Assembly: GCA_025451195.1 (NCBI GenBank)
Contig: JANWKV010000006.1
Location: forward strand, 1 to 62,918
Direction: 5' to 3'
DNA length: 62,918 nt
Origin: Candidatus Microgenomates bacterium
Lineage (GTDB): Bacteria > Patescibacteriota > Microgenomatia > Levybacterales > UBA12049
Below the pieces are notes generated by a model, which had not been told where the DNA came from, did not search any database, and worked only from the letters and a program-made list of their open reading frames with translations. A program made the position numbers and the translations under genes. Positions 3,165 to 62,918 of this stretch are shown piece by piece. How positions within the stretch are numbered: the first letter of the stretch is position 1; each line of letters begins with the position of its first letter.

Positions 3165-3712
3165 ATTTCATTCTGAACTTGTTTCAGAAGTTTTACCAAC
3201 TTTTCTCTCCAAAATGCCTGAATTTCTTTTGCTTGTTTTTGAGTTGGAATTTTTTCATGTCCAACTGCAACTTGTGATTTACCTTCTCCTTTTGAATAGA
3301 ACCCAACATCTACTCGAGTTTTCCCATCCGACCATTTTATTCGCATTGATTTATCTTTTGTTGCTTTTGTAATAGTAAATTTTTCCGAAAGCCACTGTTT
3401 TCTTTTTTTCCCATCTTCCCAAAAGCTGTAAAGAATATTTATAGGTACAGGAACTGTTTTTGATGCACCAACCTGAAACCCGCCAGAGTTTTGACTATCA
3501 ATTCTTAATCCTTTTGCTTTTTCGTATCCAACTGTTACCATTTGCGACCACCAACCGCTTTTTAAATAATTATCATTAACGAATTTTGCTATTTCTTTGT
3601 GAGGCTTTTGAAAAAGCATTTCTTTGTCTAAAATGACAATCCATTCGTCCCAGGTTTTACCGGTTGCCTTCTTAACCGATTCGGAAAACATTCCGTTTAC
3701 AATTTCTGCCAT
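3161..3712 (-). CDS. Hypothetical protein (helical N-terminal module with WWSQMVTVGYEKAKGLR motif, beta-rich C-terminal half)
   Basis: 183 aa ORF and first gene of the 3712->1227 overlap-coupled operon. Family not confidently recognised. Confidence 0.6.
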   Translation of the reverse strand: MAEIVNGMFSESVKKATGKTWDEWIVILDKEMLFQKPHKEIAKFVNDNYLKSGWWSQMVTVGYEKAKGLRIDSQNSGGFQVGASKTVPVPINILYSFWEDGKKRKQWLSEKFTITKATKDKSMRIKWSDGKTRVDVGFYSKGEGKSQVAVGHEKIPTQKQAKEIQAFWREKLVKLLKQVQNEI

Positions 3713-3788
3713 AAAACAATTATAACAAAATACAATATGGAAAATGTTGTATTAATGCAATTTTAATTGCGAATGGTACAATGGATAT

Positions 3789-4238
3789 GTGAAAGCATTA
3801 CTTGATTTCTTTAAAAAAAATTCATTGCTTTTTATCTTCCTGACTCCATGGATTGTTGACACATTTGTTACTCTTTTAGGACAAGACGAAAGCTTCTGGC
3901 ACGGGTCGCTTTTTATAAACGAGGCACATCCTATTTATCATTATTTACTAACACTTGGCCCTATACCTTTCATTATGGGTAATGTGGTGGAGCTTTCGAT
4001 TGTTTATTTTTTTGTTAAAATTTTGCCAAGACCAATAAATCTAATGCTTGCTCTTGGATACGGGACAGGCACTGTTTGGTCTTCGAGCAGTTGGACATAC
4101 ACCATTTTAAGTAAATTTTTACCGGGTCAGGAAGTAAATGCGTTTTATTATGACTGCATCTATTTAATTCTAATGGGGATAATTGCGGGTTTTTGCGTTA
4201 ATTTATATTTTGAAAGTGTTTTTAAGAAGAAAAAATAA
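3789..4238 (+). CDS. Hypothetical integral membrane protein (about 4 TM)
   Basis: 149 aa hydrophobic ORF with a GTG start. The extended -10 TGGTACAAT (3774-3782) ends 6 nt upstream. Confidence 0.55.
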   Translation: MKALLDFFKKNSLLFIFLTPWIVDTFVTLLGQDESFWHGSLFINEAHPIYHYLLTLGPIPFIMGNVVELSIVYFFVKILPRPINLMLALGYGTGTVWSSSSWTYTILSKFLPGQEVNAFYYDCIYLILMGIIAGFCVNLYFESVFKKKK

Positions 4239-5574: not shown

Positions 5575-6788
5575 AAATAAGAAATATACTAATAATTGTC
5601 TTGATATTAATTGCGGGTATATATTTATTTTTTAAGACTCCTAAAACAACACATACTCCTCAAGCATTGCAAAATCAAACAACAACAGTTTTGTCTAATT
5701 CAACAGCAAAACAAAATACTCAATCTATAAAATATATTTCTGCAGGAGCGAGTCCAAATATCCCTCTAAATTTACCAGGTGATTTTACAATCCACATTTT
5801 TGCAACCGGTCTTGGAACTGCGCGCGATTTACAATTTAGCCCAGGTGGAACTCTTATAGTTTCTAATCCATCGGGAAATAGCGTCTATGCACTACCTGAT
5901 AAAAATAATGACGGAGTTGCGGATGAAATTAAACCTATCATCAGCGGGGAAAATCATGTTCACGGACTTGCTTTTTATAACGGCAAATTATTTATTGCGG
6001 ACGTAGATAAGGTTGTAAGGTATAACTGGAATGAAACAACTTTAACCGCGACAAAAGATAAAGTTCTTTTTACCCTTCCGGAAAATGAAGACCACAACAA
6101 CCGCTCATTGATTTTTACTTCGGACGGAAAATTATTTATTTCACTCGGGTCAACGTGTAATATTTGCCGTCAGTCACCAACTGTTGGCGGATCAGTATTA
6201 GCATCTGATGCTAATGGTACTCCTCCAAAAGTTTTTGCAACCGGACTCAGAAATTCTCCGTTTTTTGCAATTAATCCTAAGACTAAAGACATTTGGGCAA
6301 CAGAAATGGGAAGGGATTATTTAGGAGATAATACTCCCCCTGACGAAATTAATATTTTATATGAAAGCAAAAATTACGGCTGGCCTAATTGCTATGGAAA
6401 TAAAATTCATGATACAAATTTTGACGGAATAAATCCTGACAATTGTGGAAATACCGAACCTCCAATTTACCAAATCCCCGCACACTCTGCCCCACTCGGA
6501 TTAACTTTTATTAATTCTTCCCAGTTTCCAGAAGACTGGCAGGGCGATTTGCTTGTTGCCTACCACGGTTCTTGGAATCGGTCTGTTGCAACCGGTTATA
6601 AAGTTGTGCACCTAAAAGTAAATGGAAATACAATAACCGGCTCCGATGATTTCCTTACCGGGTTTTTACAAGGAACAACGCAAAATTCAAGTTTGGGCAG
6701 GCCTGTTGATTTAACTTTTGATAAGTATGGTAATCTTTATTTATCCGACGACAAGTCGGGAAATGTTTACATAATCCAGAAAAAATAG
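5571..6788 (+). CDS. PQQ-dependent sugar (glucose/sorbosone) dehydrogenase-like beta-propeller, membrane anchored
   Basis: N-terminal TM segment, then GLRNSPFFAINP..DIWATEMGRDYLGDNTPPDEINIL..GKNYGWPNCYG, typical of the soluble glucose dehydrogenase family. Confidence 0.8.
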   Translation: MKIRNILIIVLILIAGIYLFFKTPKTTHTPQALQNQTTTVLSNSTAKQNTQSIKYISAGASPNIPLNLPGDFTIHIFATGLGTARDLQFSPGGTLIVSNPSGNSVYALPDKNNDGVADEIKPIISGENHVHGLAFYNGKLFIADVDKVVRYNWNETTLTATKDKVLFTLPENEDHNNRSLIFTSDGKLFISLGSTCNICRQSPTVGGSVLASDANGTPPKVFATGLRNSPFFAINPKTKDIWATEMGRDYLGDNTPPDEINILYESKNYGWPNCYGNKIHDTNFDGINPDNCGNTEPPIYQIPAHSAPLGLTFINSSQFPEDWQGDLLVAYHGSWNRSVATGYKVVHLKVNGNTITGSDDFLTGFLQGTTQNSSLGRPVDLTFDKYGNLYLSDDKSGNVYIIQKK

Positions 6789-6851
6789 AAATTGCTTTTG
6801 TTGTTTCTAAATTTTAAAGATTATATCTACTCCTCCAACAGTAATTACAAG

Positions 6852-6860
6852 TGGTATAAT
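6852..6860 (+). promoter_or_regulatory. Extended -10 element TGGTATAAT
   Basis: TGGTATAAT ends 6 nt before GTG 6867. The same TGGTAnnAT pattern recurs at 3774, 15151, 20416, c1194 and c13306. Confidence 0.45.
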
Positions 6861-6866
6861 CTTTAA

Positions 6867-7745
6867 GTGAAAATAAAAAAACCCAATATCCTCAAACGTC
6901 TCATGTTTCAAAAAGGTCAGAAAATAATTACTCTACCCTCAATGAAAAAATTAGGAATTATAAACGGAATGTCTATTGGTAAGGGTGTAAAAAATATGGC
7001 GGAAAGATTTGAGCCAAACAATATTGATGATGTAAGACAAAGAAATAGTGATTTTTTAACTGCCATTGGAGCATCATCTTTGTCTTTGGGATTCTTAATG
7101 ACTAAGACGATTCGTGGACAGTCTCCAATTGTAGATATTTCTAAAGACATGGTTAAAGAATATAAACAGAAAACAAAAGATTTTGAAAATGTTTTGGAAA
7201 ATACGGAAGCAATGATAACAACAGAGCCTGTTCCGCTTATCGCAAAACTTGCTGATTGTTTTTCGGCAGTTATTTATTCAAAAACTGGTAAAGGAAAAAA
7301 GATTCTAGCACTTTTACACTTAAGTCGCGACCAGGTAGATAATTTATTAATTGGAAAAGTTATTGAGCATTTGACGATTAAGTTTAATTGTAATCAAAAT
7401 GAAATGGTTATCGGTATTTTTCCGGGAATGGGAAAACCTTATCATACGATATCCTTAAAAGACAAAGACAAATTTATTATTGAAAAAAATTGGAAGGGAT
7501 TTATGGAAAAATCTGGGGACGGTAAAAAGATTATTCTTGATTCTTTAGGAAATATAATTAACCAATTTGAGAAATCAGGAATTAGACCGGAAAATATAGA
7601 GGCTTACGGTTATTCAGATGAGGTTGATACGTTCACTTTAGCACGAAAAGGCTTTGCCTTTTCTAATAGATATTCAACAAGTACCAGTCAGCCTGAAAAA
7701 AACGGCCGTAATCTAGTTGTCGTACAATTACCAAAAATTGTTTAG
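6867..7745 (+). CDS. YfiH/PgeF (DUF152, polyphenol-oxidase-like) family protein, divergent
   Basis: LGIINGMS..DDVRQRN..LTAIG N-terminal pattern and KLADCFSAVIY..ALLHLSRDQV, resembling the Cys/His motifs of the family. The start is uncertain (GTG 6867 or ATG 6903). Confidence 0.5.
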   Translation: MKIKKPNILKRLMFQKGQKIITLPSMKKLGIINGMSIGKGVKNMAERFEPNNIDDVRQRNSDFLTAIGASSLSLGFLMTKTIRGQSPIVDISKDMVKEYKQKTKDFENVLENTEAMITTEPVPLIAKLADCFSAVIYSKTGKGKKILALLHLSRDQVDNLLIGKVIEHLTIKFNCNQNEMVIGIFPGMGKPYHTISLKDKDKFIIEKNWKGFMEKSGDGKKIILDSLGNIINQFEKSGIRPENIEAYGYSDEVDTFTLARKGFAFSNRYSTSTSQPEKNGRNLVVVQLPKIV

Positions 7746-7774
7746 AAACTTTAGAAGATTTTATTACCTTAAAA

Positions 7775-9548
<1,774 letters not shown>

Positions 9549-9924: not shown

Positions 9925-10022
9925 TAACCTATAGAAAAGTGATTGAGTTTGAAAAGCTTGACAGAGTATATGTACTCCTTTAGCATAGACTTAAGCCCTT
10001 AATTTGGGCGGGTTTTGCTGTT

Positions 10023-11427: not shown

Positions 11428-13188
11428 CTATTTACTTTCAATCATTGAAAATAGCGCCTCTTGGGGAATTTCTACTTTACTGATTGTAAACATTTTTGAT
11501 TTGCCTTTTTTCTGTGCTTCCAGCAATTTATCTTTTCTTGTTCTGTCTCCGCCACTCATCTTTGCCAAAACATCTTTTCTAAATGGGGAAATTTCCTCTC
11601 TTGATAAAATTCTTCCCCCAATTCCTGCCTGAATAACCTGTCTGTATTGTTGTCTGGGGAGTGCGTCTTTTAATTTTTTAGCCTTTGTCCTGGCAATCTG
11701 TTCTGATTCGTCTTTATACGCAAATTCCGACAAAACATCAATCGGATTATCGTTAATTTTTACTTCTATATTAACCAAGTCCGCGCTTTTATATTCTGTT
11801 AATTCGTAATCTATGCTTGCAAAACCGGCTGTAACCGATTTTAAGTCCGGCGACAGGCCGTGTATAAACTGACTGTAAGGCATGTCATATTCCAAAATAA
11901 CATTTGTATCCTGATATTCCATATGCAACATTTGACCGCGCTTTTTTTGGCAAACTGTCATTACAGCACCCAAATATTCCTGCGGAACGTGTATTGTTAA
12001 ATGCATATACGGCTCTTTGTATTTGAGTTCTCCTCCCGGGGCCTTTTCTTCTTCATATAATACGTGAGGAAGTGTAAATAAAGGTTGCAATTGAAATTCT
12101 CTTACTAATCTTTCCCTGAAGATATCAGCGTGCAAAAGACCTAAAAAACCTATCCTGAATCCGCTTCCCAAAAATGCGGAATATTCATCGTTGTATGTAA
12201 TTGATGCGTCAATAAGCGTTAATTTTTGGATTGCCTCCCTAAGAGGCACTAATTCATCTGTTGATTTTGGATATACGCCAAAAAATACCATTGGCTTTGG
12301 TGTTTTATACCCCGGTAGTGGTTCAATCTTAAATTTTGAAGCTTGAAGTTTGAATTCGGATATCGTATCTCCAACTCTGACAAGCCTGATATCTTTTATA
12401 CCGGTTACAATATAACCGATTTCTCCCGCGGAAAGTTCTCCCGAAGAAACAAGATTTGGAGTAAAATACCCAACATCAATTGCATTGGTTTTTCTTTTTG
12501 TCTGCAATAATTCTATTTGGTTATTTGTAGAAATTTTTCCGTCAACTATTCTAACAAATGCTACAACCCCTCGGTGTTCATCGTAAACTGCATCAAAAAT
12601 AAGAGCCCTTAAAGAACTTTCCAAATTGCCGGAAGGGGCTGGAATTTTTTCAATTGATGTTTCCAGTAACTCTTTTACACCAAGACCTGTTTTTGCAGAA
12701 ATCAAATGCATTTCCTCTTCTTTAAAACCAAGTGCAATTAGCTGTTTAACAACGCCATCTACATTTGCTCCTTCCAAATCAATTTTATTTATTGCCGGAA
12801 TTATAATTAAGTTTTCTTTTTTGGCTGCCCTAAAATGTGCAATTGTTTGAGCCTGAACCCCTTTTGTTGCGTCAACAAGTAAAATTACTCCTTCGCAGCA
12901 GGCAAGGGTACGTGAGACTTCGTAGGAAAAATCAACATGACCGGGCGTATCTATAAGGTTAAGCATGTATTGCTGACCGTTTAGAAAATATTTCATCCGG
13001 ACAGGTGCAAGTTTTATTGTAATTCCACGTTCACGAGAAATTGGGTTCTGGTCTAAAAACTGCTCTTTCTTTTCTAGTTTGTTTTTATCAATCGTTCCTG
13101 TTATTTCCAAAAATCTGTCGGAAAGAGTTGATTTCCCATGGTCAATGTGGGCAATAATGGCAAAATTCCTTATATTATCTTTATTCAT
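11428..13188 (-). CDS. lepA: Translation elongation factor 4 (LepA)
   Basis: IRNFAIIAHIDHGKSTLSDRFLE.., DTPGHVDF, NKIDL GTPase motifs and a LepA-type C-terminal domain. Confidence 0.96.
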   Translation of the reverse strand: MNKDNIRNFAIIAHIDHGKSTLSDRFLEITGTIDKNKLEKKEQFLDQNPISRERGITIKLAPVRMKYFLNGQQYMLNLIDTPGHVDFSYEVSRTLACCEGVILLVDATKGVQAQTIAHFRAAKKENLIIIPAINKIDLEGANVDGVVKQLIALGFKEEEMHLISAKTGLGVKELLETSIEKIPAPSGNLESSLRALIFDAVYDEHRGVVAFVRIVDGKISTNNQIELLQTKRKTNAIDVGYFTPNLVSSGELSAGEIGYIVTGIKDIRLVRVGDTISEFKLQASKFKIEPLPGYKTPKPMVFFGVYPKSTDELVPLREAIQKLTLIDASITYNDEYSAFLGSGFRIGFLGLLHADIFRERLVREFQLQPLFTLPHVLYEEEKAPGGELKYKEPYMHLTIHVPQEYLGAVMTVCQKKRGQMLHMEYQDTNVILEYDMPYSQFIHGLSPDLKSVTAGFASIDYELTEYKSADLVNIEVKINDNPIDVLSEFAYKDESEQIARTKAKKLKDALPRQQYRQVIQAGIGGRILSREEISPFRKDVLAKMSGGDRTRKDKLLEAQKKGKSKMFTISKVEIPQEALFSMIESK

Positions 13189-13374
13189 AGTATTGAAGTC
13201 CCGTATTTACGACATTTTGAGGCAAGAATACAGATCTTGAGATCAACGAGCAAAGTTACTGGGACAAAATTCCTAATGTATTTTTTATCCATATTTGGTA
13301 AATGGATTGTACCATACCCTTCTCAAATGAAAATGCGGTAAGAAGAGTGCAAGCGTAAAAATATAAATAAGAAT

Positions 13375-15105
13375 TTATGAAGGTTTAAAATGTGCAGGGT
13401 CAATTGTTTCTTCTGTTTTTCCAAGTATTTCTCTCCAATTACCCAGTTTTTTAAACATAAGTAAAAATGTTTTTGCCTCTTTTACGTTAAAAAGCCAGGT
13501 AAGAAAAATGTAAAGGGAGAGACCGGCGAAAGACGAAATCCCTGTTAGAATTAAAAGATTAATTGTTTTTGTTGTGTCAAAAACCAAACGGTCTAAAAGT
13601 TTTATTGGTACGTATAAGGTAAAAGCGGTAAAGAGAGTTGCAACAAAAATTTTTAAGAGAGGTGAAAAAAGGGCGGATATGTTAAATCCATTCGTCTTTT
13701 TACCTAGAATAACAAATAAAATAACGAACTGGAAAATACTTGTAATTGTATATGCGGCGGCAATTCCACCTGTTCCAAAATCAACAATAAATTCCCCTCT
13801 CCAAAATCCGTTAAAAAATCCGTAAGGTATTACCCCTTGGTGTAATCCCGACCGGTAAATAACAATCGATAATGCACTTAGAATTAGCATCATTACTGTT
13901 GAGATTGTCCCGACAATAAGCGGGGTTTTTGTATCATGCAGTGCATAATATGCGCGTGAAACAAGATAGATTAAAGCTTGCGCGAAAAGAGAAATGGAAA
14001 AAATACCAAGAGTCCTACCCGTTTCAACTGTTGCCGGCCAGTCGAAAAGTGATGCTCCATAAATAAGTCTGACAATTGGAATACGAAGAACTAAAAACAA
14101 AACCGAGATTGGCAGAATCAAATACATCATTTCGTAAAAACTGGTTAGAAAAGTTTCTTTGAATAAAACTAAGTTTTCTCTTTGACGCGATAAAACCGGA
14201 AAAGCAGCCTGTGCTATTGTTTGACCAAATAAAACAACAGGCGCAAAAGCCAAAGTTTGCGCATAATCAAAAATAACATAATTTCTCCCCGGATCTTCTA
14301 AAAAAGAAACAAGAGTGACTGTAATTAAAATCCCAATCTGAAAAATTGCTATAGAGATAGTCCGGGGCCACATGAGATGAAACACTTCTTTTATTCCTTC
14401 CGTATGAAAAAAATCTGCAGGATGAAAATAAAAACCAATTTTTTTTAAAAATGGTAATTGAATTAAAACGAAAATAAACGCGCCAATTACAACTCCCCAC
14501 GCTGCCGAAAATATGCCGGTACTACCCGAAAGAAGCAGAATACCGATAATAATACCTAAATTGTATGTTGCTGCCGCTATTCCGGGAATAAAAAAGTGGT
14601 TATAAGACTGCAAAATTGCAGATAAAAAACTTCCGATAATAAATAGAAGCTCTCCTAGTATTATTATCCTCATTAAATTAGCCATAAGCATAATTTCGTG
14701 TTCTGTGAATCCGGGTGCAATCACATATGAGAAAAAATTTGCAAAGACAAACAAAACTACTCCAACAATAAAAAACACGACAAGGCTTAACGATAAAAGT
14801 GTTGATGCAAATATCTGCCCTTCTTTTTCCCTGTTTTTAACTAGGTAATTTGAGAAAACGGGAATAAAGGCACTCGAAAGCGCTCCGGCAATAATAATCT
14901 GGAAAAGTGAATCAGGAAGTCTTGATGATGCTAAATATATACCAAGAGTGTTAGACGCCCCAAAAATTGCAACAAGAAGGCGTTGTCTGACAAGCCCAAG
15001 CACTTGGGAAAAAATAACAGTAGCCATTATTACAAATGCCGCGGAAAGGATATTTGTTTGCCTTTTTAGCAAAAGGCTTAACCCTTTTTTGAAAATATCG
15101 TTCAT
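13375..15105 (-). CDS. murJ: Lipid II flippase MurJ/MviN
   Basis: 576 aa polytopic protein. N-terminus ..SAAFVIMATVIFSQVLGLVRQRLLVAIFGASNTLGIYLASSRLPD is typical of MurJ. Confidence 0.88.
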   Translation of the reverse strand: MNDIFKKGLSLLLKRQTNILSAAFVIMATVIFSQVLGLVRQRLLVAIFGASNTLGIYLASSRLPDSLFQIIIAGALSSAFIPVFSNYLVKNREKEGQIFASTLLSLSLVVFFIVGVVLFVFANFFSYVIAPGFTEHEIMLMANLMRIIILGELLFIIGSFLSAILQSYNHFFIPGIAAATYNLGIIIGILLLSGSTGIFSAAWGVVIGAFIFVLIQLPFLKKIGFYFHPADFFHTEGIKEVFHLMWPRTISIAIFQIGILITVTLVSFLEDPGRNYVIFDYAQTLAFAPVVLFGQTIAQAAFPVLSRQRENLVLFKETFLTSFYEMMYLILPISVLFLVLRIPIVRLIYGASLFDWPATVETGRTLGIFSISLFAQALIYLVSRAYYALHDTKTPLIVGTISTVMMLILSALSIVIYRSGLHQGVIPYGFFNGFWRGEFIVDFGTGGIAAAYTITSIFQFVILFVILGKKTNGFNISALFSPLLKIFVATLFTAFTLYVPIKLLDRLVFDTTKTINLLILTGISSFAGLSLYIFLTWLFNVKEAKTFLLMFKKLGNWREILGKTEETIDPAHFKPS

Positions 15106-56454: not shown

Positions 56455-56588
56455 ATTTGTCAAGACCAATATGAGTTGTTTGCCACAAGAAATGTAATCT
56501 AGGTCATTGACAAATTTTTAAAAAAGTCGTTGACTAAAATTAGGGGTAAATTTTTTCCCCTTTTGTGTATTTGTATGACATAAATATT

Positions 56589-58415
56589 ATGATCAAATTT
56601 GTCGGAACTGCCCTACAAGACAAACAAACGCTCCTTTTTTATTGTCAAAAAGAAGGTAATGAAATTTTCTTCAAAGCAGTCGGAAGCCAAAATGGACTCG
56701 AATTTTCAGATAAATGTAACTACATATTTGTCTTTGATGAATCTCAAAAAGAAGAACAAAACTTTAATTGGAAGAGTTTTAGGATCGCCCGCCAACATGA
56801 TCAATTTCTTCTTACATATAAATTAGACTCCGAAAAAGACGCGTCTTTATTTGGCGCATTATCCGCAGATTTAATCAGATGGCAAAAAATTGGAAAAATT
56901 GATGAAATTAAAGAAACCGGTACGGTTGTTCCGCTGTTCCAGTTTAACAATAATTATGTAATGTATTTTGGGGAAAAGGATATAAAAATTGCCTCTTCAG
57001 AAGATTTAAAAACATGGAAAACGGAAACAAAAGCCGTCTTAAAATCCAGAAAAGCAAGTTTTGACAGCGGAAATCTTGAAGTCGCAAATGCTTATGTCTT
57101 AAATAACAACATACTATTAATATACTATGTAAAAAAAGAGAAAGACGGAAAAACTTTATACGATGTGGGGGCTGCAATATTTGATAAATCTGATCCGACA
57201 AAACCCATATGGCGCAGTGAAGAGGCAATTTTTGAACACCCGGAAGAAATGGAAAATGAAAAAATGCAGCCTTTTGGAAGCGCAATAAGTGGTGACCGGC
57301 TTATTTTATATTGGTTAATAGGAGAAAATAATTTATTCGCAGTTTCAGTGCCAATCCCAACAACAAGTACCGGCTTAAAACATAAAGTGTTTACCCATAT
57401 AGTTAAAAAATCGGAAAAAAATCCGATTATCGGACCAAACCCTGCTCACCCTTGGGAGTCACGCGCGGCTTTTAACAGCGCCGCAATTTTAGATAACGGA
57501 AAAGTCCATTTTGTATATAGAGCACTTGGAGATAAAGATCTTTCTGTTTTGGGATATGCAGTTAGTAGTGATGGAGTAAATATTGATGAAAGATCTACCG
57601 AACCGATTTATATTCCCCGTGAACCGTTTGAGACACCCGGCGGAAACGCGTTTTCCAGCTTTGCACAACATTTTGCGTCTGGAGGAGGTTATGGGGGGAT
57701 TGAAGATCCAAGAATTACCAGACTCGAAGATAAAATTTATCTGACCTATGTGGCATTTGACGGAGCAAATCCGCCAAGGGTTGCTATGTCTTCTATTCAC
57801 ATTGATGATTTTAGAAAAAAAAACTGGGACAAATGGGAAAAGCCAAAATTAATTTCCGCACCGGGAATGGTTAACAAAAGCGCTGTTATTTTTCCAAGAA
57901 AAATAAGAGGAAAATACGTTATGATGCATAGGGTTTATCCGAATATTCTTATCGATTATTTGGATAATCTGAACTTTAAAGAATATCTTAAAGGCCATTA
58001 TTTTATTCCTCCTAGGAAAAAATTCTGGGACAGCAAGAAAGTAGGAGCAGGTGCACCGCCAATGGAGACAAACGACGGATGGCTTTTAATTTATCAGTCT
58101 GTTGGACACCAGGATTCAAGCAGATATAAGATTGGAGCTATGATGTTGGACCGGGATAACCCGGAAAAAGTTTTGTACAGGACACACACCGCGATTATAG
58201 AACCGAGTGAAAGGTACGAAAATGAAGGGTTTAAAGCTGGAGTTGTATATCCGTGCGGAGCTGTAATTAAAGATAATTCGTTGCATGTATATTATGGCGG
58301 AGCAGACACTGTGGTTTGTGCAGCCAAAGCGGACTTGAATACTTTCTTAAATGAAATGAAAAGAAACAGGGAACCAAAACTAACAAAAGTAACAAGCAGA
58401 CAGTTTGCAAATTAA
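56589..58415 (+). CDS. GH130-like glycosidase/phosphorylase with an additional divergent N-terminal beta-propeller-like half
   Basis: The C-terminal half has NPIIGPNPAHPWESRAAFNSAAI..VHFVYRA..GGIEDPRITRLEDKIYLTYVAFDG..MMLDRDNPEKV..VVYPCGAV..YYGGADT, typical of the GH130 (DUF377) fold. The start is ATG 56589 or GTG 56565. Confidence 0.72.
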   Translation: MIKFVGTALQDKQTLLFYCQKEGNEIFFKAVGSQNGLEFSDKCNYIFVFDESQKEEQNFNWKSFRIARQHDQFLLTYKLDSEKDASLFGALSADLIRWQKIGKIDEIKETGTVVPLFQFNNNYVMYFGEKDIKIASSEDLKTWKTETKAVLKSRKASFDSGNLEVANAYVLNNNILLIYYVKKEKDGKTLYDVGAAIFDKSDPTKPIWRSEEAIFEHPEEMENEKMQPFGSAISGDRLILYWLIGENNLFAVSVPIPTTSTGLKHKVFTHIVKKSEKNPIIGPNPAHPWESRAAFNSAAILDNGKVHFVYRALGDKDLSVLGYAVSSDGVNIDERSTEPIYIPREPFETPGGNAFSSFAQHFASGGGYGGIEDPRITRLEDKIYLTYVAFDGANPPRVAMSSIHIDDFRKKNWDKWEKPKLISAPGMVNKSAVIFPRKIRGKYVMMHRVYPNILIDYLDNLNFKEYLKGHYFIPPRKKFWDSKKVGAGAPPMETNDGWLLIYQSVGHQDSSRYKIGAMMLDRDNPEKVLYRTHTAIIEPSERYENEGFKAGVVYPCGAVIKDNSLHVYYGGADTVVCAAKADLNTFLNEMKRNREPKLTKVTSRQFAN

Positions 58416-58539: not shown

Positions 58540-60468
58540 ATGGCAACTTTAACCCGTATTCCGGAAAATCCAATTCTTACACCAAACCCCCAAAACGAAT
58601 GGGAAAAAGAAGCCACATTTAATGGATGTGTTTCCTATGTTGACGGCACATATCATATGGTTTACCGCGCGCTCTCCTCAATGAAAATGCAAAACGGAAT
58701 TAATATGGAAGTTTCTTCAATAGGATATGCAAAGAGCACAGACGGCATACATTTTACCGATAGAACGCAAATAATTTCTCCTACGGAAGACTTCGACATG
58801 TACGGATGCGAAGACCCAAGAATTACCTACATGGATGGAAAATTTTATATCTTTTATACCGCCCTTTCCATGTTTCCCTTTACAGCATATGGAATAAGAC
58901 TCGCCGTTGCAATTACGAAAGATTTTAAAACATTTGAAAAACATCCTGTTACAACGTTTAATTCAAAAGCAATGGGTCTTTTTCCGGAAAAAATCAACGG
59001 TAAGTTTGCAGCCCTTTTAACAATAAACACCGACATGCCGCCTGCCAAAATTGCTTATGCTAACTTTGATAAAGAAGAAGATATGTGGTCGCCGGTTTTT
59101 TGGATGAACTGGTATGAAAATGCAAATAACCATATTATTCATCTTCTCCGTGATATCCGCGACCAGGTAGAACTGGGTTCTCCTCCGATAAAAACAGAAT
59201 ACGGTTGGCTGGTTATGTATTCCTACATTAAAAATTACATGTCAAATGATAAAAAATTTGGAATAGAAGCAGTACTTTTGGATAGTAATGACCCAAGAAT
59301 TATTTTAGGCAGAACCCAACTCCCACTTCTTATGCCGGAAGAAAAATACGAATTGGAAGGAATCGTAGCAAATGTTATTTTTCCATCAGGAGCTCTAATT
59401 AAAGACGATAAACTGATTGTTTATTATGGCGCAGCAGATACTTCTGTTGCTGTTGCATCTATGCACTTAAGCTCTCTTTTAGACCAGATAAAACCAATAG
59501 ATGTCTCAACAATTACAACTTCGAGCCTTAGAAAATTTGTAAGATTTGAGGGGAATCCAATTATTAAATCGGCACTCGAACTTGATTGGCAAAATAAAGC
59601 TGTTTTTAACCCTGCTGCAATTTATGAAGACGGGAAAGTTCATCTTGTGTATAGGGCGCAATCAAAAAGCGGAGTTTCTGTTTTTGGATATGCGTCAAGT
59701 AAAGACGGATTTCATATTGATGAAAATTTGGATAAGCCGATTTATATTCCCCGGGAAAGTTTTGAAAGAAGCACAAAACAAAATGGTAATTCCGGCTGCG
59801 AAGACCCAAGAATTACAAAAATAAATGATAGATTATTTATGACTTATACTGCATATGACGGGGCAAATCCTCCAAGAATCGCGCTTACCTCTATTGCTCT
59901 TGCGGATTTTTTGAAAAAAAATTGGAACTGGGAAAAGCCAAAATTAATTTCCGCGCCCGGAGTCGATGATAAAGATGCATGCATTGTTAAAAAGGTAAAA
60001 GGTGAGGGGTTTGTTGCATTTCATAGACTTGGCAATGTCATTTGGCTTGATTTTTTAAGGGATTTGGATTTTCCCGAAAAGAAATATTTAACAGGCGGAA
60101 TTATCGCTCAGGCCAGAAAAGATAAATGGGACAATATAAAAGTAGGCATTGCCGCACCACCCTTAGAAACCGAAAAGGGCTGGCTGCTACTTTACCATGC
60201 GGTATCTGACCCGGGATTTATGTATAAAGTTGGCGCAATGCTTTTAGATTATGATGACCCAAGACGGATTATTGCCCGCACAGATGAGCCTATTTTGGAG
60301 CCGGAAAAACCATATGAGCTTGAAGGACAAGTTCCGAATGTTGTTTTTCCATGCGGAGCGGTTGTAATAAACGGTACGGTATTTTTGTATTATGGCGGTG
60401 CGGATTCGGTTGTTGGAGTTGCAACAAGTCCTCTATCTACAATACTCAATGTTTTACTGGAGAAATAA
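58540..60468 (+). CDS. Tandem double GH130-like glycosidase/phosphorylase
   Basis: Two complete repeats, each with ..W(E/Q)..A.FN...(V/I)..DG..H(M/L)VYRA.. and GCEDPRIT (YGCEDPRITYMDGKFY; SGCEDPRITKINDRLF), plus terminal YYGGAD(T/S). Confidence 0.75.
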   Translation: MATLTRIPENPILTPNPQNEWEKEATFNGCVSYVDGTYHMVYRALSSMKMQNGINMEVSSIGYAKSTDGIHFTDRTQIISPTEDFDMYGCEDPRITYMDGKFYIFYTALSMFPFTAYGIRLAVAITKDFKTFEKHPVTTFNSKAMGLFPEKINGKFAALLTINTDMPPAKIAYANFDKEEDMWSPVFWMNWYENANNHIIHLLRDIRDQVELGSPPIKTEYGWLVMYSYIKNYMSNDKKFGIEAVLLDSNDPRIILGRTQLPLLMPEEKYELEGIVANVIFPSGALIKDDKLIVYYGAADTSVAVASMHLSSLLDQIKPIDVSTITTSSLRKFVRFEGNPIIKSALELDWQNKAVFNPAAIYEDGKVHLVYRAQSKSGVSVFGYASSKDGFHIDENLDKPIYIPRESFERSTKQNGNSGCEDPRITKINDRLFMTYTAYDGANPPRIALTSIALADFLKKNWNWEKPKLISAPGVDDKDACIVKKVKGEGFVAFHRLGNVIWLDFLRDLDFPEKKYLTGGIIAQARKDKWDNIKVGIAAPPLETEKGWLLLYHAVSDPGFMYKVGAMLLDYDDPRRIIARTDEPILEPEKPYELEGQVPNVVFPCGAVVINGTVFLYYGGADSVVGVATSPLSTILNVLLEK

Positions 60469-60604: not shown

Positions 60605-61444
60605 ATGATCTTTCAGAAAAAATTTATTTTTTTGTTTGGGTTTATTTCTCTTTTGTTTTTGTTTTTTTTTAAACCAAATATTTCTTTTGCCCAAACGGCA
60701 ACACCAACAGTTTCGATTACCACACCAACTCTTTCTTCCTCAAGTAGCGCCGCGACCATGGGCGTTGCAACTTTTGTACAGGTAAAAGACGTAAATCTTA
60801 AAGACGGAACAGTAATTTCATCCGCTGATAATGGAGCAATAGCAACTGATGTTTCTTATGATTCTCAAGTTTTGGGAGTTATCGCAAAAGACGCGGCAAT
60901 ACTTTTAAATTCCGGAGGTTCGGCAAACAGTCTTCCTGTCATATCTGTAGGCAATGTTTATGTTTTGGTTTCGACCAAAGACGGCGTAATAAAAAAAGGT
61001 GATCTTTTAACAAGTTCGACAATTCCGGGGGTTGCTGTAAAAGCGGTAAGGTCAGGCTATGTCTTAGGAACTGCTTTGGAAGGTTATGACAATCCTGATC
61101 CAAAAAAAATAGATACCATAGTTGCCGATTTGAATTTACATTATTTTAATTCAAAACCGACTTTTCCGGGAACGCTGTCCGATTTATTTAAATTTATTGT
61201 TTTATCAACCAAAGAAGATCCGACTCCAATATTTAAAGACATTGTTGCTGCCCTTGTAGTTTTGGGATCTTTTGTTTTGGCATTTTTAACATTTGGAAGA
61301 GCAGCTGCAAAAGGAGTTGAGGCACTCGGTAGAAACCCCGCGGCAAGCAGAATTATTCATTTGGGGATAATTTTTAACGTAACAATTGTAGGGTTGATTA
61401 TTATTGCCGGCATGACCGTTGCTTTTCTTATTTTAAGACTATAA
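60605..61444 (+). CDS. Secreted protein anchored by a C-terminal ATP-synthase subunit-c-like two-helix hairpin
   Basis: Signal peptide MIFQKKFIFLFGFISLLFLFFF..SFAQ and a domain of about 210 aa. The C-terminus is ..VVLGSFVLAFLTFGRAAAKGVEALGRNPAASRIIHLGIIFNVTIVGLIIIAGMTVAFLILRL. The start is set at ATG 60605 (TATAAA ends 7 nt upstream). Confidence 0.7.
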   Translation: MIFQKKFIFLFGFISLLFLFFFKPNISFAQTATPTVSITTPTLSSSSSAATMGVATFVQVKDVNLKDGTVISSADNGAIATDVSYDSQVLGVIAKDAAILLNSGGSANSLPVISVGNVYVLVSTKDGVIKKGDLLTSSTIPGVAVKAVRSGYVLGTALEGYDNPDPKKIDTIVADLNLHYFNSKPTFPGTLSDLFKFIVLSTKEDPTPIFKDIVAALVVLGSFVLAFLTFGRAAAKGVEALGRNPAASRIIHLGIIFNVTIVGLIIIAGMTVAFLILRL

Positions 61445-61472
61445 ACCGTGCAAAATTATTATATTATCCCCA

Positions 61473-62363
61473 ATGAAAATAGGTAAGAAAGTTCTTGAAG
61501 CAATTAATGATGCAAGAATAAAACGCCCATTATGGTATAAAAAATACCATGCCTCAGGATTTTCAGATTTAATTCACGGATTTATTTTATCTGTTGCAAT
61601 ATTTTTTCTATTGATTGGTTTTTTAAAAATTTTATTGCCGGTTAGCGCAGAAACCGGAGTGGAAACTACAATAACACAGTCAATTTATCCTAATAAACTG
61701 GGTGTTAGCGCACCGCTGTATTTATATTTTTCACCAATTGTTTCCAACATTTTCAGTTGGCAAAACTCAACCTCTATATTGGATAATATTATTTTATCTA
61801 ACACCAGAAACGGGGAAACAAGTTGGACGGTTAGCGTAATATGTAGTGGTTTTTCAGCAATAAATCAACCAGTAAAACTACATGGGTTAAATGATACTTT
61901 AACTTCCGGCGGGGAATATACAAATCCTAAAGGAGGAATATACACAATTACTATTACCAAAGGCGGCAATACGGGTATTGCACAGTTCAATGTTAAAGGC
62001 ATGGAGGACCAAAACGGGACAACGGGAACAAATGTCCTAATTGGGACAAGAGGATTAACTGCAACCTTTGCTCCTGCAAAATATGTAACAGGCGATTCAT
62101 GGGAAATCCGTGTTGACACAATTCCTGTTTCTAATTTAACGGTAACACCGCGTGGCTTAACATTGTTGTCGGGCAAATCGGTAAATGCTCATTTGGGACC
62201 AAGCCATACTTTTTTAAACAGAAACGACCCGGCAACTATATTAGTTGTACCGCTTGGCCTATTTGGTAATAGCTATTCAACCAGTTTGTTTCTCTCCTTA
62301 AGAATTCCACCATTTACATATGCCAACAAATACAGGGCTGTATTGTCTATAACATCCGAATAG
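61473..62363 (+). CDS. Signal-anchored beta-rich surface protein, WxL-like
   Basis: N-terminal ..KRPLWYKKY.. plus a TM segment. NTRNGETSWTVSVICSGFS and C-terminal ..YANKYRAVLSITSE resemble the two motif regions of WxL domains. Paralog of the next gene. Confidence 0.45.
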   Translation: MKIGKKVLEAINDARIKRPLWYKKYHASGFSDLIHGFILSVAIFFLLIGFLKILLPVSAETGVETTITQSIYPNKLGVSAPLYLYFSPIVSNIFSWQNSTSILDNIILSNTRNGETSWTVSVICSGFSAINQPVKLHGLNDTLTSGGEYTNPKGGIYTITITKGGNTGIAQFNVKGMEDQNGTTGTNVLIGTRGLTATFAPAKYVTGDSWEIRVDTIPVSNLTVTPRGLTLLSGKSVNAHLGPSHTFLNRNDPATILVVPLGLFGNSYSTSLFLSLRIPPFTYANKYRAVLSITSE

Positions 62364-62425
62364 TTTGTTATGGCTTTTTATTTGGCTTGACACATTAAAA
62401 TTTTTATGTGTACGATAAAGTGCCA

Positions 62426-62918
62426 ATGGATATTAAAAAAATTTTAAATGATATAAAACATACAGAAACTAAGTGGTATAAAGATTACTGCAAATGGATA
62501 AATCATGGAAGATTTCATTTGCTCATTTTTATTATTTCTTTTATTATTATTGCTACCGGTTTTACAAATGTTTTTTTCCAAATAGTTAAATTATTTACTA
62601 TTGAAAAAGCATATGGCTCTACAACTCACGTGTCACAAGACGTAATAGGAGGAAGTCTAACAATATCCAATTCCGGAGATCAATCTTTAAGTCCGGTTAG
62701 CGTTTCAACCGTTTCCCAAAATTCAACTGGAAGTCTTGGAACAATTACCGTAACCGATGATACAGGTACAGGTAACGGTTGGAATGCAACTGCAACTTCC
62801 ACAGATTTTTATAAAGTTAACTCTGCTGTTAAAACATCTGGAAGTAACAGTACCGTTACAACAGATGGAACAAGCACATATGTAAATGGTTCGGGCACAA
62901 GTCTTAACGGAGATATTT
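62426..62918 (+). CDS. Signal-anchored WxL-like surface protein, 3'-truncated by the window edge
   Basis: ATG 62426 is open to the window end. N-terminal ..TETKWYKDY.. plus a TM segment. LGTITVTDDTGTGNGWNATATSTDFY resembles the first WxL motif region. Not in the ORF track. Confidence 0.5.
   Translation, partial: MDIKKILNDIKHTETKWYKDYCKWINHGRFHLLIFIISFIIIATGFTNVFFQIVKLFTIEKAYGSTTHVSQDVIGGSLTISNSGDQSLSPVSVSTVSQNSTGSLGTITVTDDTGTGNGWNATATSTDFYKVNSAVKTSGSNSTVTTDGTSTYVNGSGTSLNGDI

Follow-up and report, generated by a model that had tools for sequence, protein, structure and literature searches.

Gene 1, hereafter c*, lies near the end of a 62,918-nucleotide stretch of contig JANWKV010000006.1 from a Candidatus Microgenomates bacterium, and the whole of this stretch is termed the window. 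The protein is built from a signal peptide, a ~130-residue all-β ectodomain and a C-terminal two-helix hairpin, which resembles subunit c of F-type ATP synthases but lacks its membrane carboxylate. In most of the related loci that could be read, the gene heads an operon encoding the F1 motor and its stalks. On this evidence we consider it fairly probable that c* is the Microgenomates version of the c subunit, a rotor subunit blind to protons within an F-type ATPase that has been repurposed.

A subunit c-like hairpin without the membrane carboxylate

The likeness to subunit c appears in the register of a short loop. In the c subunits of Escherichia coli and bovine mitochondria, the loop residues are R41-Q42-P43 and R38-N39-P40, and the carboxylates are D61 and E58, respectively, both of which sit 20 residues past the arginine (R+20). 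Counted by hand, R243-N244-P245 of gene 1 is in line with these two triplets, and the stretch VAFLIL occupies R+29 to R+34 in both gene 1 and bovine c. At R+20, where the carboxylate would be, gene 1 has G263, with T260 and N258 close by. This register had been reported by the initial annotation, which had also placed the open reading frames (ORFs) correctly and quoted the C-terminal sequence without error.

Searches with a single sequence gave weak scores. Gene 1 matched Pfam PF00137 with an E value of 0.31 and 11.7 bits (cutoff 24) over model positions 2-60 of 60, and the isolated hairpin matched the NCBIfam model of F0F1 subunit c (PRK07159) with an E value of 0.0011 and 19 bits versus a cutoff of 122; by these scores, c* stays below the curated family thresholds, unlike F-type c. 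A phmmer search against the PDB sequences ranked c subunits at the top, with E values of 0.04-1. By comparison, a profile of 33 diverse hairpins had 12 matches in PDB, 11 of which are F-type c subunits with a best E value of 5e-4; in this alignment the R-x-P residues are in register, and the glutamate of the c subunits faces a hydrophobic column. Alignment by hhalign against five canonical c sequences yielded a probability of 72% and an E value of 3.3e-5. Moreover, a crude hidden Markov model (HMM) made from five c-subunit sequences picked out the c* family as the sole match among 7645 ORFs of related loci. The kinship to ATP-synt_C posited by the initial annotation is sub-threshold with the Pfam model itself and significant in the searches with family profiles, and the similarity of the hairpin to c subunits exceeds chance despite the weak single-sequence HMM scores.

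The structure of gene 1 was predicted by AlphaFold. An input of 20 close homologs resulted in a predicted local distance difference test score (pLDDT) of 51, compared to 85 for an input of 33 diverse members, and the latter model was used. It consists of a signal-type helix (residues 2-21), a disordered Ser/Thr-rich linker, a β domain (residues 50-181), a short helix (residues 191-204) and the two helices of the hairpin (residues 206-243 and 245-278), the last of which were modelled with a pLDDT of ~92, in agreement with the hairpin topology initially proposed. Structural similarity search of the modelled hairpin against PDB using Foldseek retrieved the c subunits of chloroplast, Spirulina, Bacillus PS3, Chloroflexus, yeast, bovine and mycobacterial enzymes, with template modelling scores (TM-scores) of 0.70-0.86, root-mean-square deviations of 1.4-2.0 Å and sequence identities of 16-30%. 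Similar to the F-type c subunits of Spirulina (c15, PDB 2wie), chloroplast (c14, PDB 3v3c and 6fkf), Bacillus PS3 (PDB 6n2d) and bovine mitochondria (c8), c* is a two-helix hairpin with its termini predicted outside and its loop inside, with R-[QN]-P in register and with a VAFLIL-like stretch at an equal offset. Unlike these subunits, it adds a signal peptide and an extracytoplasmic extension of ~180 residues.

The family to which gene 1 belongs is large. A database clustered at 90% contains 659 homologs at E≤1e-3, the best 120 of which are 58-71% identical to gene 1 (the window's own protein aside) and mostly ~270 residues long, and a 50% representative library contains 368 clusters at E≤1e-30 and 2740 at E≤1e-10. 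A fusion that arose from gene calling or assembly was rejected, as the identical single ORF occurs on hundreds of independent contigs; the fusion is real and conserved. Organism names among the homologs point to Levyibacteriota, with a named member from Woesebacteria (KKQ74999.1), and the titles of the GTDB representative loci read Levyibacteriota, Amesbacteria, Woesebacteria or Patescibacteria group. The family spans Levyibacteria to Woesebacteria, within the Microgenomates of the candidate phyla radiation (CPR). Many of its proteins are automatically named “F0F1-type ATP synthase membrane subunit c” at JGI and “hypothetical protein” at NCBI. Many of the GTDB species-representative metagenome-assembled genomes (MAGs) with a c* operon (L008-L059) are evidently mislabelled, bearing names such as “uncultured Gammaproteobacteria”, “Methylomirabilota”, “Sulfotelmatobacter” and “Eisenbacteria”. 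In addition, a few members of ~450-540 residues (P0190, P0238 and P0260), together with the ORF at 568-2136 of L062, carry an N-terminal extension of ~250 residues, in which an excisionase/MerR-like helix-turn-helix (LSLADAAKAWGVSQDYLRFL...KIGRNWMT) and then a transmembrane helix precede the ectodomain and hairpin.

Conservation was analyzed in a diverse alignment of 33 members, which share 30-41% identity with the window protein, and in 155 hairpins filtered at <80% identity, the latter set having been chosen by the motif G[RK]NP, which retained 268 of 279 proteins. The loop residues G-R-N-P are invariant in the close, the 33-member and the 155-member sets, the last of which was selected by this very motif; the R-N-P loop initially noted in gene 1 is conserved in its homologs. 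No Asp or Glu is found in the membrane segments of any member (20/20, 33/33 and 155/155; positions 209-230 and 253-279 in the largest set), and the missing ion-binding carboxylate that had been noticed in gene 1 is a property of every family member examined (0/155), unlike in F-type c. The R+20 column of the 155 hairpins is hydrophobic and variable, with V51/I49/L26/F8 as the leading counts and V, I, L, F, G, A and T as the residues seen, and position 263 is rotated by ~117 degrees from the side of helix 2 that is conserved. An outer face of helix 2 that is unconstrained around R+20 is what would be expected if no subunit a reads that face.

By contrast with R+20, the column of N258 holds N144/H9/S2, G269 is present in 152 of the 155 hairpins, and A273 and I251 are conserved. 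The mean frequency of the top residue is 0.73 for the loop (residues 232-248), compared to 0.50 for the ectodomain, 0.51 for transmembrane helix 1 and 0.52 for transmembrane helix 2. The cytoplasmic loop is the most conserved segment of c*, and by sequence it is the homolog of the loop that contacts γ/ε in F-ATPases. In helix 1, the packing motif GxGxGxG of F-type c was not found; the consensus RYxxAxLVxxxSxxxGFxxFGR contains a single stripe of small residues. This stripe and the conserved, buried Asn258 are only suggestive of a homo-oligomeric ring like that of F-type c, which has 8-17 protomers.

Position of c* at the head of the atp operon

Flanks of ~10 kb on each side of gene 1 were read in relatives, comprising 52 loci from species-representative genomes (50 testable) and 80 loci from JGI metagenomes, down to 36% identity (58 testable). 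In 43 of the 50 genome loci, gene 1 is followed on the same strand by genes for ATP synthase subunits, within 300 nt in 35 cases and at 0.3-3.3 kb in the other 8, and the same holds for 52 of the 58 metagenome loci, within 300 nt in 43 cases. The operon has the order c*-b-δ-α-γ-β-ε, with c* in the first place. In the first relatives, gene 1 is located 0.7-2.4 kb upstream of the b-like, OSCP/δ, α, γ, β and ε genes, and in the first set of loci a median of ~60 nt separates c* from the b-like gene. The JGI and NCBI gene calls downstream of c* read OSCP, ATP-synt_ab, ATP-synt and ATP-synt_DE_N. Members at 31-36% identity, which include KKQ74999.1 and the loci L065 and L066 (the latter from Woesebacteria), have the identical order, and two short contigs (L060 and L062) show it over their extent. 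As c* heads the atp operon directly before b, it occupies the slot of atpE, in the same way as the gene of F-type c is situated just upstream of atpF(b)-atpH-atpA-atpG-atpD-atpC. The gene upstream of c* is usually on the opposite strand, or encodes a GH130 protein or a penicillin-binding protein (PBP). The initial annotation had stated that gene 1 is not in an atp operon, which is literally true of the 62.9-kb window, where none was found, and fails for the family.

The genes that follow c* encode a motor that looks functional from its sequence. The motifs GGAGVGKT and GERTREG are found in all 41 sequences of F1 β, and GDRKTGKT in 41 of 44 sequences of F1 α, and one representative α (L008) was also seen to carry SVTRVG, the arginine-finger motif; the catalytic motifs of F1 are intact. 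The b-like protein consists of one N-terminal transmembrane helix and a long coiled coil, with a weak match to PF00430 (E value of 1.4e-4). Its length ranges from 185 to 281 residues (for example L008 10817-11608, with coiled-coil repeats such as SYQASLKEV... and AHQTSLKQL...), which is an odd spread for a rigid peripheral stalk of fixed span.

Some operons deviate from this order. In the metagenome locus L083 (352-5240), c* is followed after 2 nt by α and then by γ, β and ε, and b and δ are absent; this contig is either misassembled or a variant that naturally lacks the stalk. One clade has one to four tetratricopeptide repeat (TPR)-like proteins of ~580 residues directly after c* (for example at 10905-12674 of L005/L006), and the same insert is seen in L047, L067, L068, L077, L093, L097, L102 and L105. 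The atp genes stand behind the insert in L005/L006 and L068, and none is seen in the 6.5-10 kb downstream in L047, L102 and L105. Upstream of c* in L065, a 964-residue ORF on the reverse strand (5776-8670) with an N-terminal helix-turn-helix and masked residues (X) overlaps several small genes; gene calls around it are unreliable.

Might c* be a static membrane tether or an evolutionary relic, which forms no rotor ring, with F1 merely held at the membrane or Fo in decay? A similar decay in a reduced genome has reportedly been proposed for the incomplete A-type ATPase of Nanoarchaeum. Such a state would fit a helix 1 devoid of GxGxGxG, the lack of a stator subunit a, the loss of adjacency to atp genes in some loci and the absence of b and δ from L083. 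On the other hand, the hairpin is under very strong purifying selection down to ~30% identity, above all in the loop facing γ/ε, and the F1 catalytic motifs, δ and b are intact in nearly all operons. Furthermore, a conserved, buried Asn (N258) and a stripe of small residues are features typical of helices that oligomerize specifically. We regard a tether or relic as quite improbable.

Subunit a was found neither in the flanks of ~130 loci nor in the window, by BLASTP with E. coli AtpB, by a screen for the motif R-x-x-[GASC]-N in proteins with at least four transmembrane helices, or by Pfam scans; the lack of an adjoining gene for this subunit is a further difference from F-type c. The membrane ORFs upstream of c* were ruled out as subunit a by their Pfam assignments (VTT, LytR_C, CAP, DUF4260, pilin and bestrophin-like), and the 0.8-0.9-kb gaps upstream of c* in L065 and L066 contain no ORF fit for it. 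Similarly, the c-subunit HMM found no canonical c in the flanks of the ~130 loci. With neither a membrane carboxylate nor a subunit a gene in the operon, c* would not translocate H+ or Na+ by the known mechanism.

Carboxylate-less hairpins do occur in working rings, as exemplified by the carboxylate-poor c1 of Acetobacterium woodii (PDB 4bem_J, which is among the sequence matches) and by the duplicated proteolipids of V/A-type ATPases, and c* is proposed to sit in a rotor ring in the same manner. This precedent leaves room for the main rival reading, with c* as an accessory or minority rotor subunit, a ring-assembly factor or a regulatory factor of a conventional ion-coupled F1Fo, the subunit a and carboxylate-bearing c of which would be encoded elsewhere for ATP-driven pumping of H+ or Na+; the loci, moreover, were read to flanks of ~10 kb. 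However, A. woodii c1 and the V/A-type proteolipids are in every case accompanied by hairpins that have the carboxylate, within one protein or one ring, and by subunit a, whereas c* has no such partner within ~10 kb, and neither a nor canonical c is present there in ~130 loci or in the 62.9-kb window. It fills the single c slot directly before b, and a split of a and c from b-δ-α-γ-β-ε would be unusual in tiny genomes across a whole class. In addition, helix 2 varies on its outer face near R+20, in contrast to a surface that subunit a would read. A conventional enzyme with c* as an accessory part is, in our judgment, unlikely, and the proton-blind rotor subunit remains our preferred reading.

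The ectodomain and the neighboring genes in the window

The hairpin of c* carries an ectodomain whose fold is shared with phage structural proteins. Foldseek search of the β domain against PDB revealed similarity to the Pam3 capsid protein (8hdt_G, E value of 4e-4), to 8pkh of Borrelia phage BB1, to 5wk1_K of TW1 and to the N-terminus of phi29 gp12. In BFVD, 38 matches at E<1e-3 (best 9e-12) were obtained, mostly unnamed phage proteins; the few named ones are preneck-appendage barrels, N-terminal domains of Mtd and tail proteins. A weak match of the ectodomain to Pfam PF23982 (XM1_gp53_minor_capsid) is consistent with these folds. The phage decoration, cement and tail-appendage domains (8hdt_G, 8pkh, 5wk1_K, phi29 gp12 (3suc), Mtd and PF23982) thus have a fold in common with the ectodomain, the top matches sharing 20-29% identity with E values down to 9e-12 (BFVD), and they are oligomerizing structural or adaptor domains. 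Unlike them, the ectodomain sits on a membrane hairpin in a cellular operon, outside any capsid or tail context.

The ectodomain is also found without the hairpin. Three stretches of P0212, a protein of 4272 residues, match it, and ORFs near some operons match gene 1 by BLAST, namely L065 3560-5932 and L134 13265-14650, both on the reverse strand; the ORF in L065 has faint matches to Pfam families of phage depolymerases or lyases. Occurrence of the ectodomain without the hairpin suggests a mobile surface or phage module.

At the N-terminus of gene 1, the -3/-1 rule predicts a cleavage after S-F-A (SFA/QT), and the homologs keep an [FY]-A-Q motif behind the N-terminal hydrophobic stretch. An alternative start at ATG 60548 is possible; the homologs begin at the position corresponding to 60605. 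The features of the locus are listed in Table 1.

Table 1. Coordinates of gene 1 (c*), its segments and the neighboring genes in the window
Feature	Position	Strand	Description
Gene 1 (c*)	60605-61444	+	ORF, 279 residues; stop codon 61442-61444
Signal peptide (predicted), residues 1-29	60605-60691	+	Hydrophobic helix 2-21 in the AlphaFold model
Extracytoplasmic all-β domain, residues 50-181	60752-61147	+	AlphaFold pLDDT >94; phage decoration/cement/appendage-N-terminal-like fold
Linker, residues 182-207	61148-61225	+	Short helix 191-204 and invariant P206; between ectodomain and membrane, from model and alignment
Transmembrane helix 1, residues 208-231	61226-61297	+	Small-residue stripe A215, S222, G226; ends F230-G231-R232
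Cytoplasmic loop, residues 232-248	61298-61348	+	G-[VI]-E-A-[LI]-G-R-N-P-[LA]-A; in register with the R-Q/N-P loop of c subunits
Transmembrane helix 2, residues 249-279	61349-61441	+	R+20 is G263; N258, G269 and A273 conserved
Two tandem double-domain GH130 genes	56565-58415 and 58540-60468	+	PF04041, E values 9e-62 and 2e-107
Gene 2	61473-62363	+	ORF, 296 residues; WxL-like surface protein with an N-terminal anchor; begins 28 nt downstream of gene 1
Gene 3	62426 (or 62408)-62918	+	Truncated at the end of the window; paralogous to gene 2, and of the subtype whose L027 member passes the Pfam WxL cutoff

The window has a G+C content of 35.6% and ordinary CPR-type housekeeping genes, and it ends 1.47 kb past gene 1. 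Scans for promoters and terminators around genes 1-3 found sites at no higher level than in shuffled sequence. Upstream of gene 1, the GH130 genes of the window have counterparts immediately upstream of c* in many genomes resembling Levyibacteria, namely L001-L004, L007, L009, L010, L015, L016, L024 and others, which are either single genes of ~340 residues or two tandem double-domain genes of ~610-650 residues; in L001, the GH130 gene ends at 10000 and c* starts at 10001. A class A PBP and a Wzy_C protein often precede these genes. The adjacency of GH130 and c* is either a functional linkage to the cell envelope or a mere gene order of the lineage.

Downstream, genes 2 and 3 are distant paralogs (26% identity, E value of 4e-9) with the N-termini WYKKY and WYKDY, respectively, and the motif VTDDTGTGNGWNATATSTDF, which agrees with the paralogy and the WYK-x-Y N-termini initially annotated. 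A homolog search with gene 2 found four proteins only. Genes 2 and 3 and their relatives align as one family of two subtypes, which have TVTDxRGTGxGW and a C-terminal YxAxLTxT in common. Neither gene 2 nor the truncated gene 3 of the window matches Pfam WxL (PF13731) at E≤10. In L027, however, their homologs score 26.2 and 22.5 bits on this family (cutoff 25), and the next gene (12689-13825) encodes a WxL-interacting protein (PF06030, E value of 5.9e-15). The WxL-like character ascribed to the two genes at the outset is upheld by way of these homologs and their PF06030 neighbor, and not by a direct match of the window copies. L064 has the order of gene 1, gene 2, a gene 3-like gene and a WxL-interacting protein (WxLIP), its ORF at 3206-4201 being a WxLIP_PGBD protein.

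These genes resemble the cell-surface complex (Csc) clusters of Firmicutes, which are composed of WxL proteins (PF13731) and DUF916/PF06030 proteins. Genes 2 and 3 and their homologs are likewise WxL-like, with the TVTDxRGTGxGW motif, and in L027 and L064 the WxL genes are followed by a WxLIP_PGBD protein with a C-terminal anchor. By analogy, a WxL-interacting protein probably follows gene 3 beyond the window end. Different from the Firmicute clusters, the CPR versions possess an N-terminal WYKxY cytoplasmic tail and a transmembrane anchor, and the module is independent of gene 1.

The initial annotation had viewed gene 1 as a c-subunit hairpin co-opted outside any ATPase, with its oligomer as the membrane pedestal on which a Csc-like surface complex of WxL proteins would stand. 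Gene 2 indeed starts 28 nt past gene 1 on the same strand, the order of gene 1, two WxL genes and WxLIP recurs in L027 and L064, and the window has no visible atp genes. Yet WxL genes follow gene 1 in only three of ~130 loci, namely the window, L027 and L064, and L063 contains the gene 2/3 pair without gene 1. The conserved neighbor of gene 1 is instead the F-type atp operon: the gene 2 family is tiny, whereas that of gene 1 is very large and almost always heads such an operon. The best-kept part of gene 1, moreover, is the cytoplasmic loop and not the ectodomain. The pedestal is largely refuted by this synteny, and we consider it very improbable. Genes 2 and 3 are a Csc-like module inserted after c*, independent of gene 1 and of the ATPase. 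For the proton-blind rotor subunit, the insertion directly after c* would either separate it from the rest of its operon or have displaced the latter, so that the atp genes of this genome may lie behind the inserted module past position 62918, or c* may stand apart from them, as it does in 13 of 108 related loci.

A candidate proton-blind rotor and its known counterparts

Altogether, three features argue for c* as the rotor-side membrane partner of F1, namely its slot in the operon, its fold and a γ/ε-facing loop that is extremely conserved. In the proposed mechanism, the signal peptide would be cleaved, leaving the ~130-residue β domain outside the membrane; helix 1 would cross inward, the G-R-N-P loop would lie in the cytoplasm, and helix 2 would lead back out. 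This is the canonical topology of subunit c, with the extra β domain carried on its external N-terminus. The protein would oligomerize into a rotor-like ring that docks to the γ/ε foot of the catalytically intact F1 via the conserved loop, and that displays a crown of oligomerizing, phage-decoration-like ectodomains on the cell surface. Most likely, the complex would hydrolyse ATP as an F-type motor or anchor without producing an ion gradient, and by way of the ectodomain crown this hydrolysis may be coupled to a process on the cell surface. Pumping or using protons is probably not what the machine does.

Several observations weigh against such a rotor. Gene 1 does not reach the curated subunit c thresholds of Pfam and NCBIfam, and with a helix 1 that lacks GxGxGxG, a c-ring-like assembly is not assured. 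A single-helix b would be a poor torque anchor without subunit a, which leaves a rotary output without a demonstrated stator. Gene 1 lies apart from atp genes in 13 of the 108 testable loci (7 from genomes and 6 from metagenomes), so that it can be expressed separately, and tblastn with the b, δ, α, γ, β and ε subunits of relatives found no atp genes in the 62.9-kb window. Finally, the flanks that were read cover ~10 kb per side, and a canonical atpB/atpE pair or a second, genuine F1Fo operon may lie elsewhere in these genomes of ~1 Mb. As far as could be seen, the c* operon is the primary and not an additional atp operon.

To our knowledge, the mycoplasma F1-like ATPases are the sole precedents for a repurposed F-type motor, and by analogy the c* ATPase would have its closest counterpart there. 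Mycoplasmas encode “F1-like X0” ATPases of Types 2 and 3 (PMC3369863), of which Type 2 drives gliding (PMC8406192, PMC11864180) and Type 3 is required for the antibody-cleaving MIB-MIP system (PMC12994834). In these clusters, genes of F1-type α, β, γ and ε subunits stand beside membrane proteins without a recognizable proton path, and ATP hydrolysis serves a surface function in a genome-reduced, host-dependent bacterium. In the membrane protein MMCAP2_0577 of the Type 3 cluster, a signal peptide is followed by ectodomains and, at the C-terminus, by two transmembrane helices (PMC12994834), which is the same architecture as that of c*; we note this likeness as one of architecture and do not claim homology. 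There are also clear differences. The mycoplasma clusters are extra paralogous sets beside a genuine F1Fo, lack b and δ, have an α subunit without the δ-binding N-terminal helix and contain a protein with 12 transmembrane helices, whereas the CPR operon keeps b and δ and has a membrane subunit that is recognizably derived from c. The absence of b and δ, which is a criterion for X0 ATPases in mycoplasmas, does not apply to the CPR operon, where b-like and δ/OSCP genes are both present.

In full-text literature searches, nothing was found on the c* fusion or on c subunits of CPR bacteria that lack the carboxylate, and neither Jaffe 2020 nor the Amazon MAG paper provided useful subunit information. 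The novelty initially attributed to gene 1 holds, within these searches, for papers on the fusion and on the missing carboxylate, and not for databases, since the JGI automatic annotation already says subunit c.

Why fermentative CPR bacteria, which have no respiratory chain, would keep an F-type ATP synthase is usually answered by its running in reverse to generate a proton gradient (PMC11665869). The puzzle is an open one, and c* addresses it: in a large CPR group, the membrane rotor subunit is unable to bind ions in the known way and the proton-channel gene is outside the operon, and nevertheless the F1 motor, both stalks and the F1-facing loop of the rotor are under strong selection. This provides a concrete case for an F-type motor that carries an external domain and has been uncoupled in nature or repurposed. 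As COG-based annotation labels c* “subunit c”, it is silently counted as a normal atpE, and inferences on the energy metabolism of Microgenomates from their genomes may mislead. A broader proposal is that Microgenomates lack any subunit a or carboxylate-bearing c, and that their sole F-type ATPase is a proton-blind, ATP-driven rotary machine, whose c* ring would transmit torque or conformational work through the membrane to the crown of phage-decoration-like domains on the cell surface; we put this forward tentatively, as a serious possibility that we nonetheless hold to be doubtful. If it were true, a rotary ATPase would have been repurposed for an extracellular task in a whole CPR class, and the entry “ATP synthase present” in metabolic reconstructions of Microgenomates would be wrong. 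With c*, the membrane sector of the F-type ATPase takes a new form, which is conserved across Microgenomates and bears on the bioenergetics of CPR bacteria and on the evolution of rotary motors.

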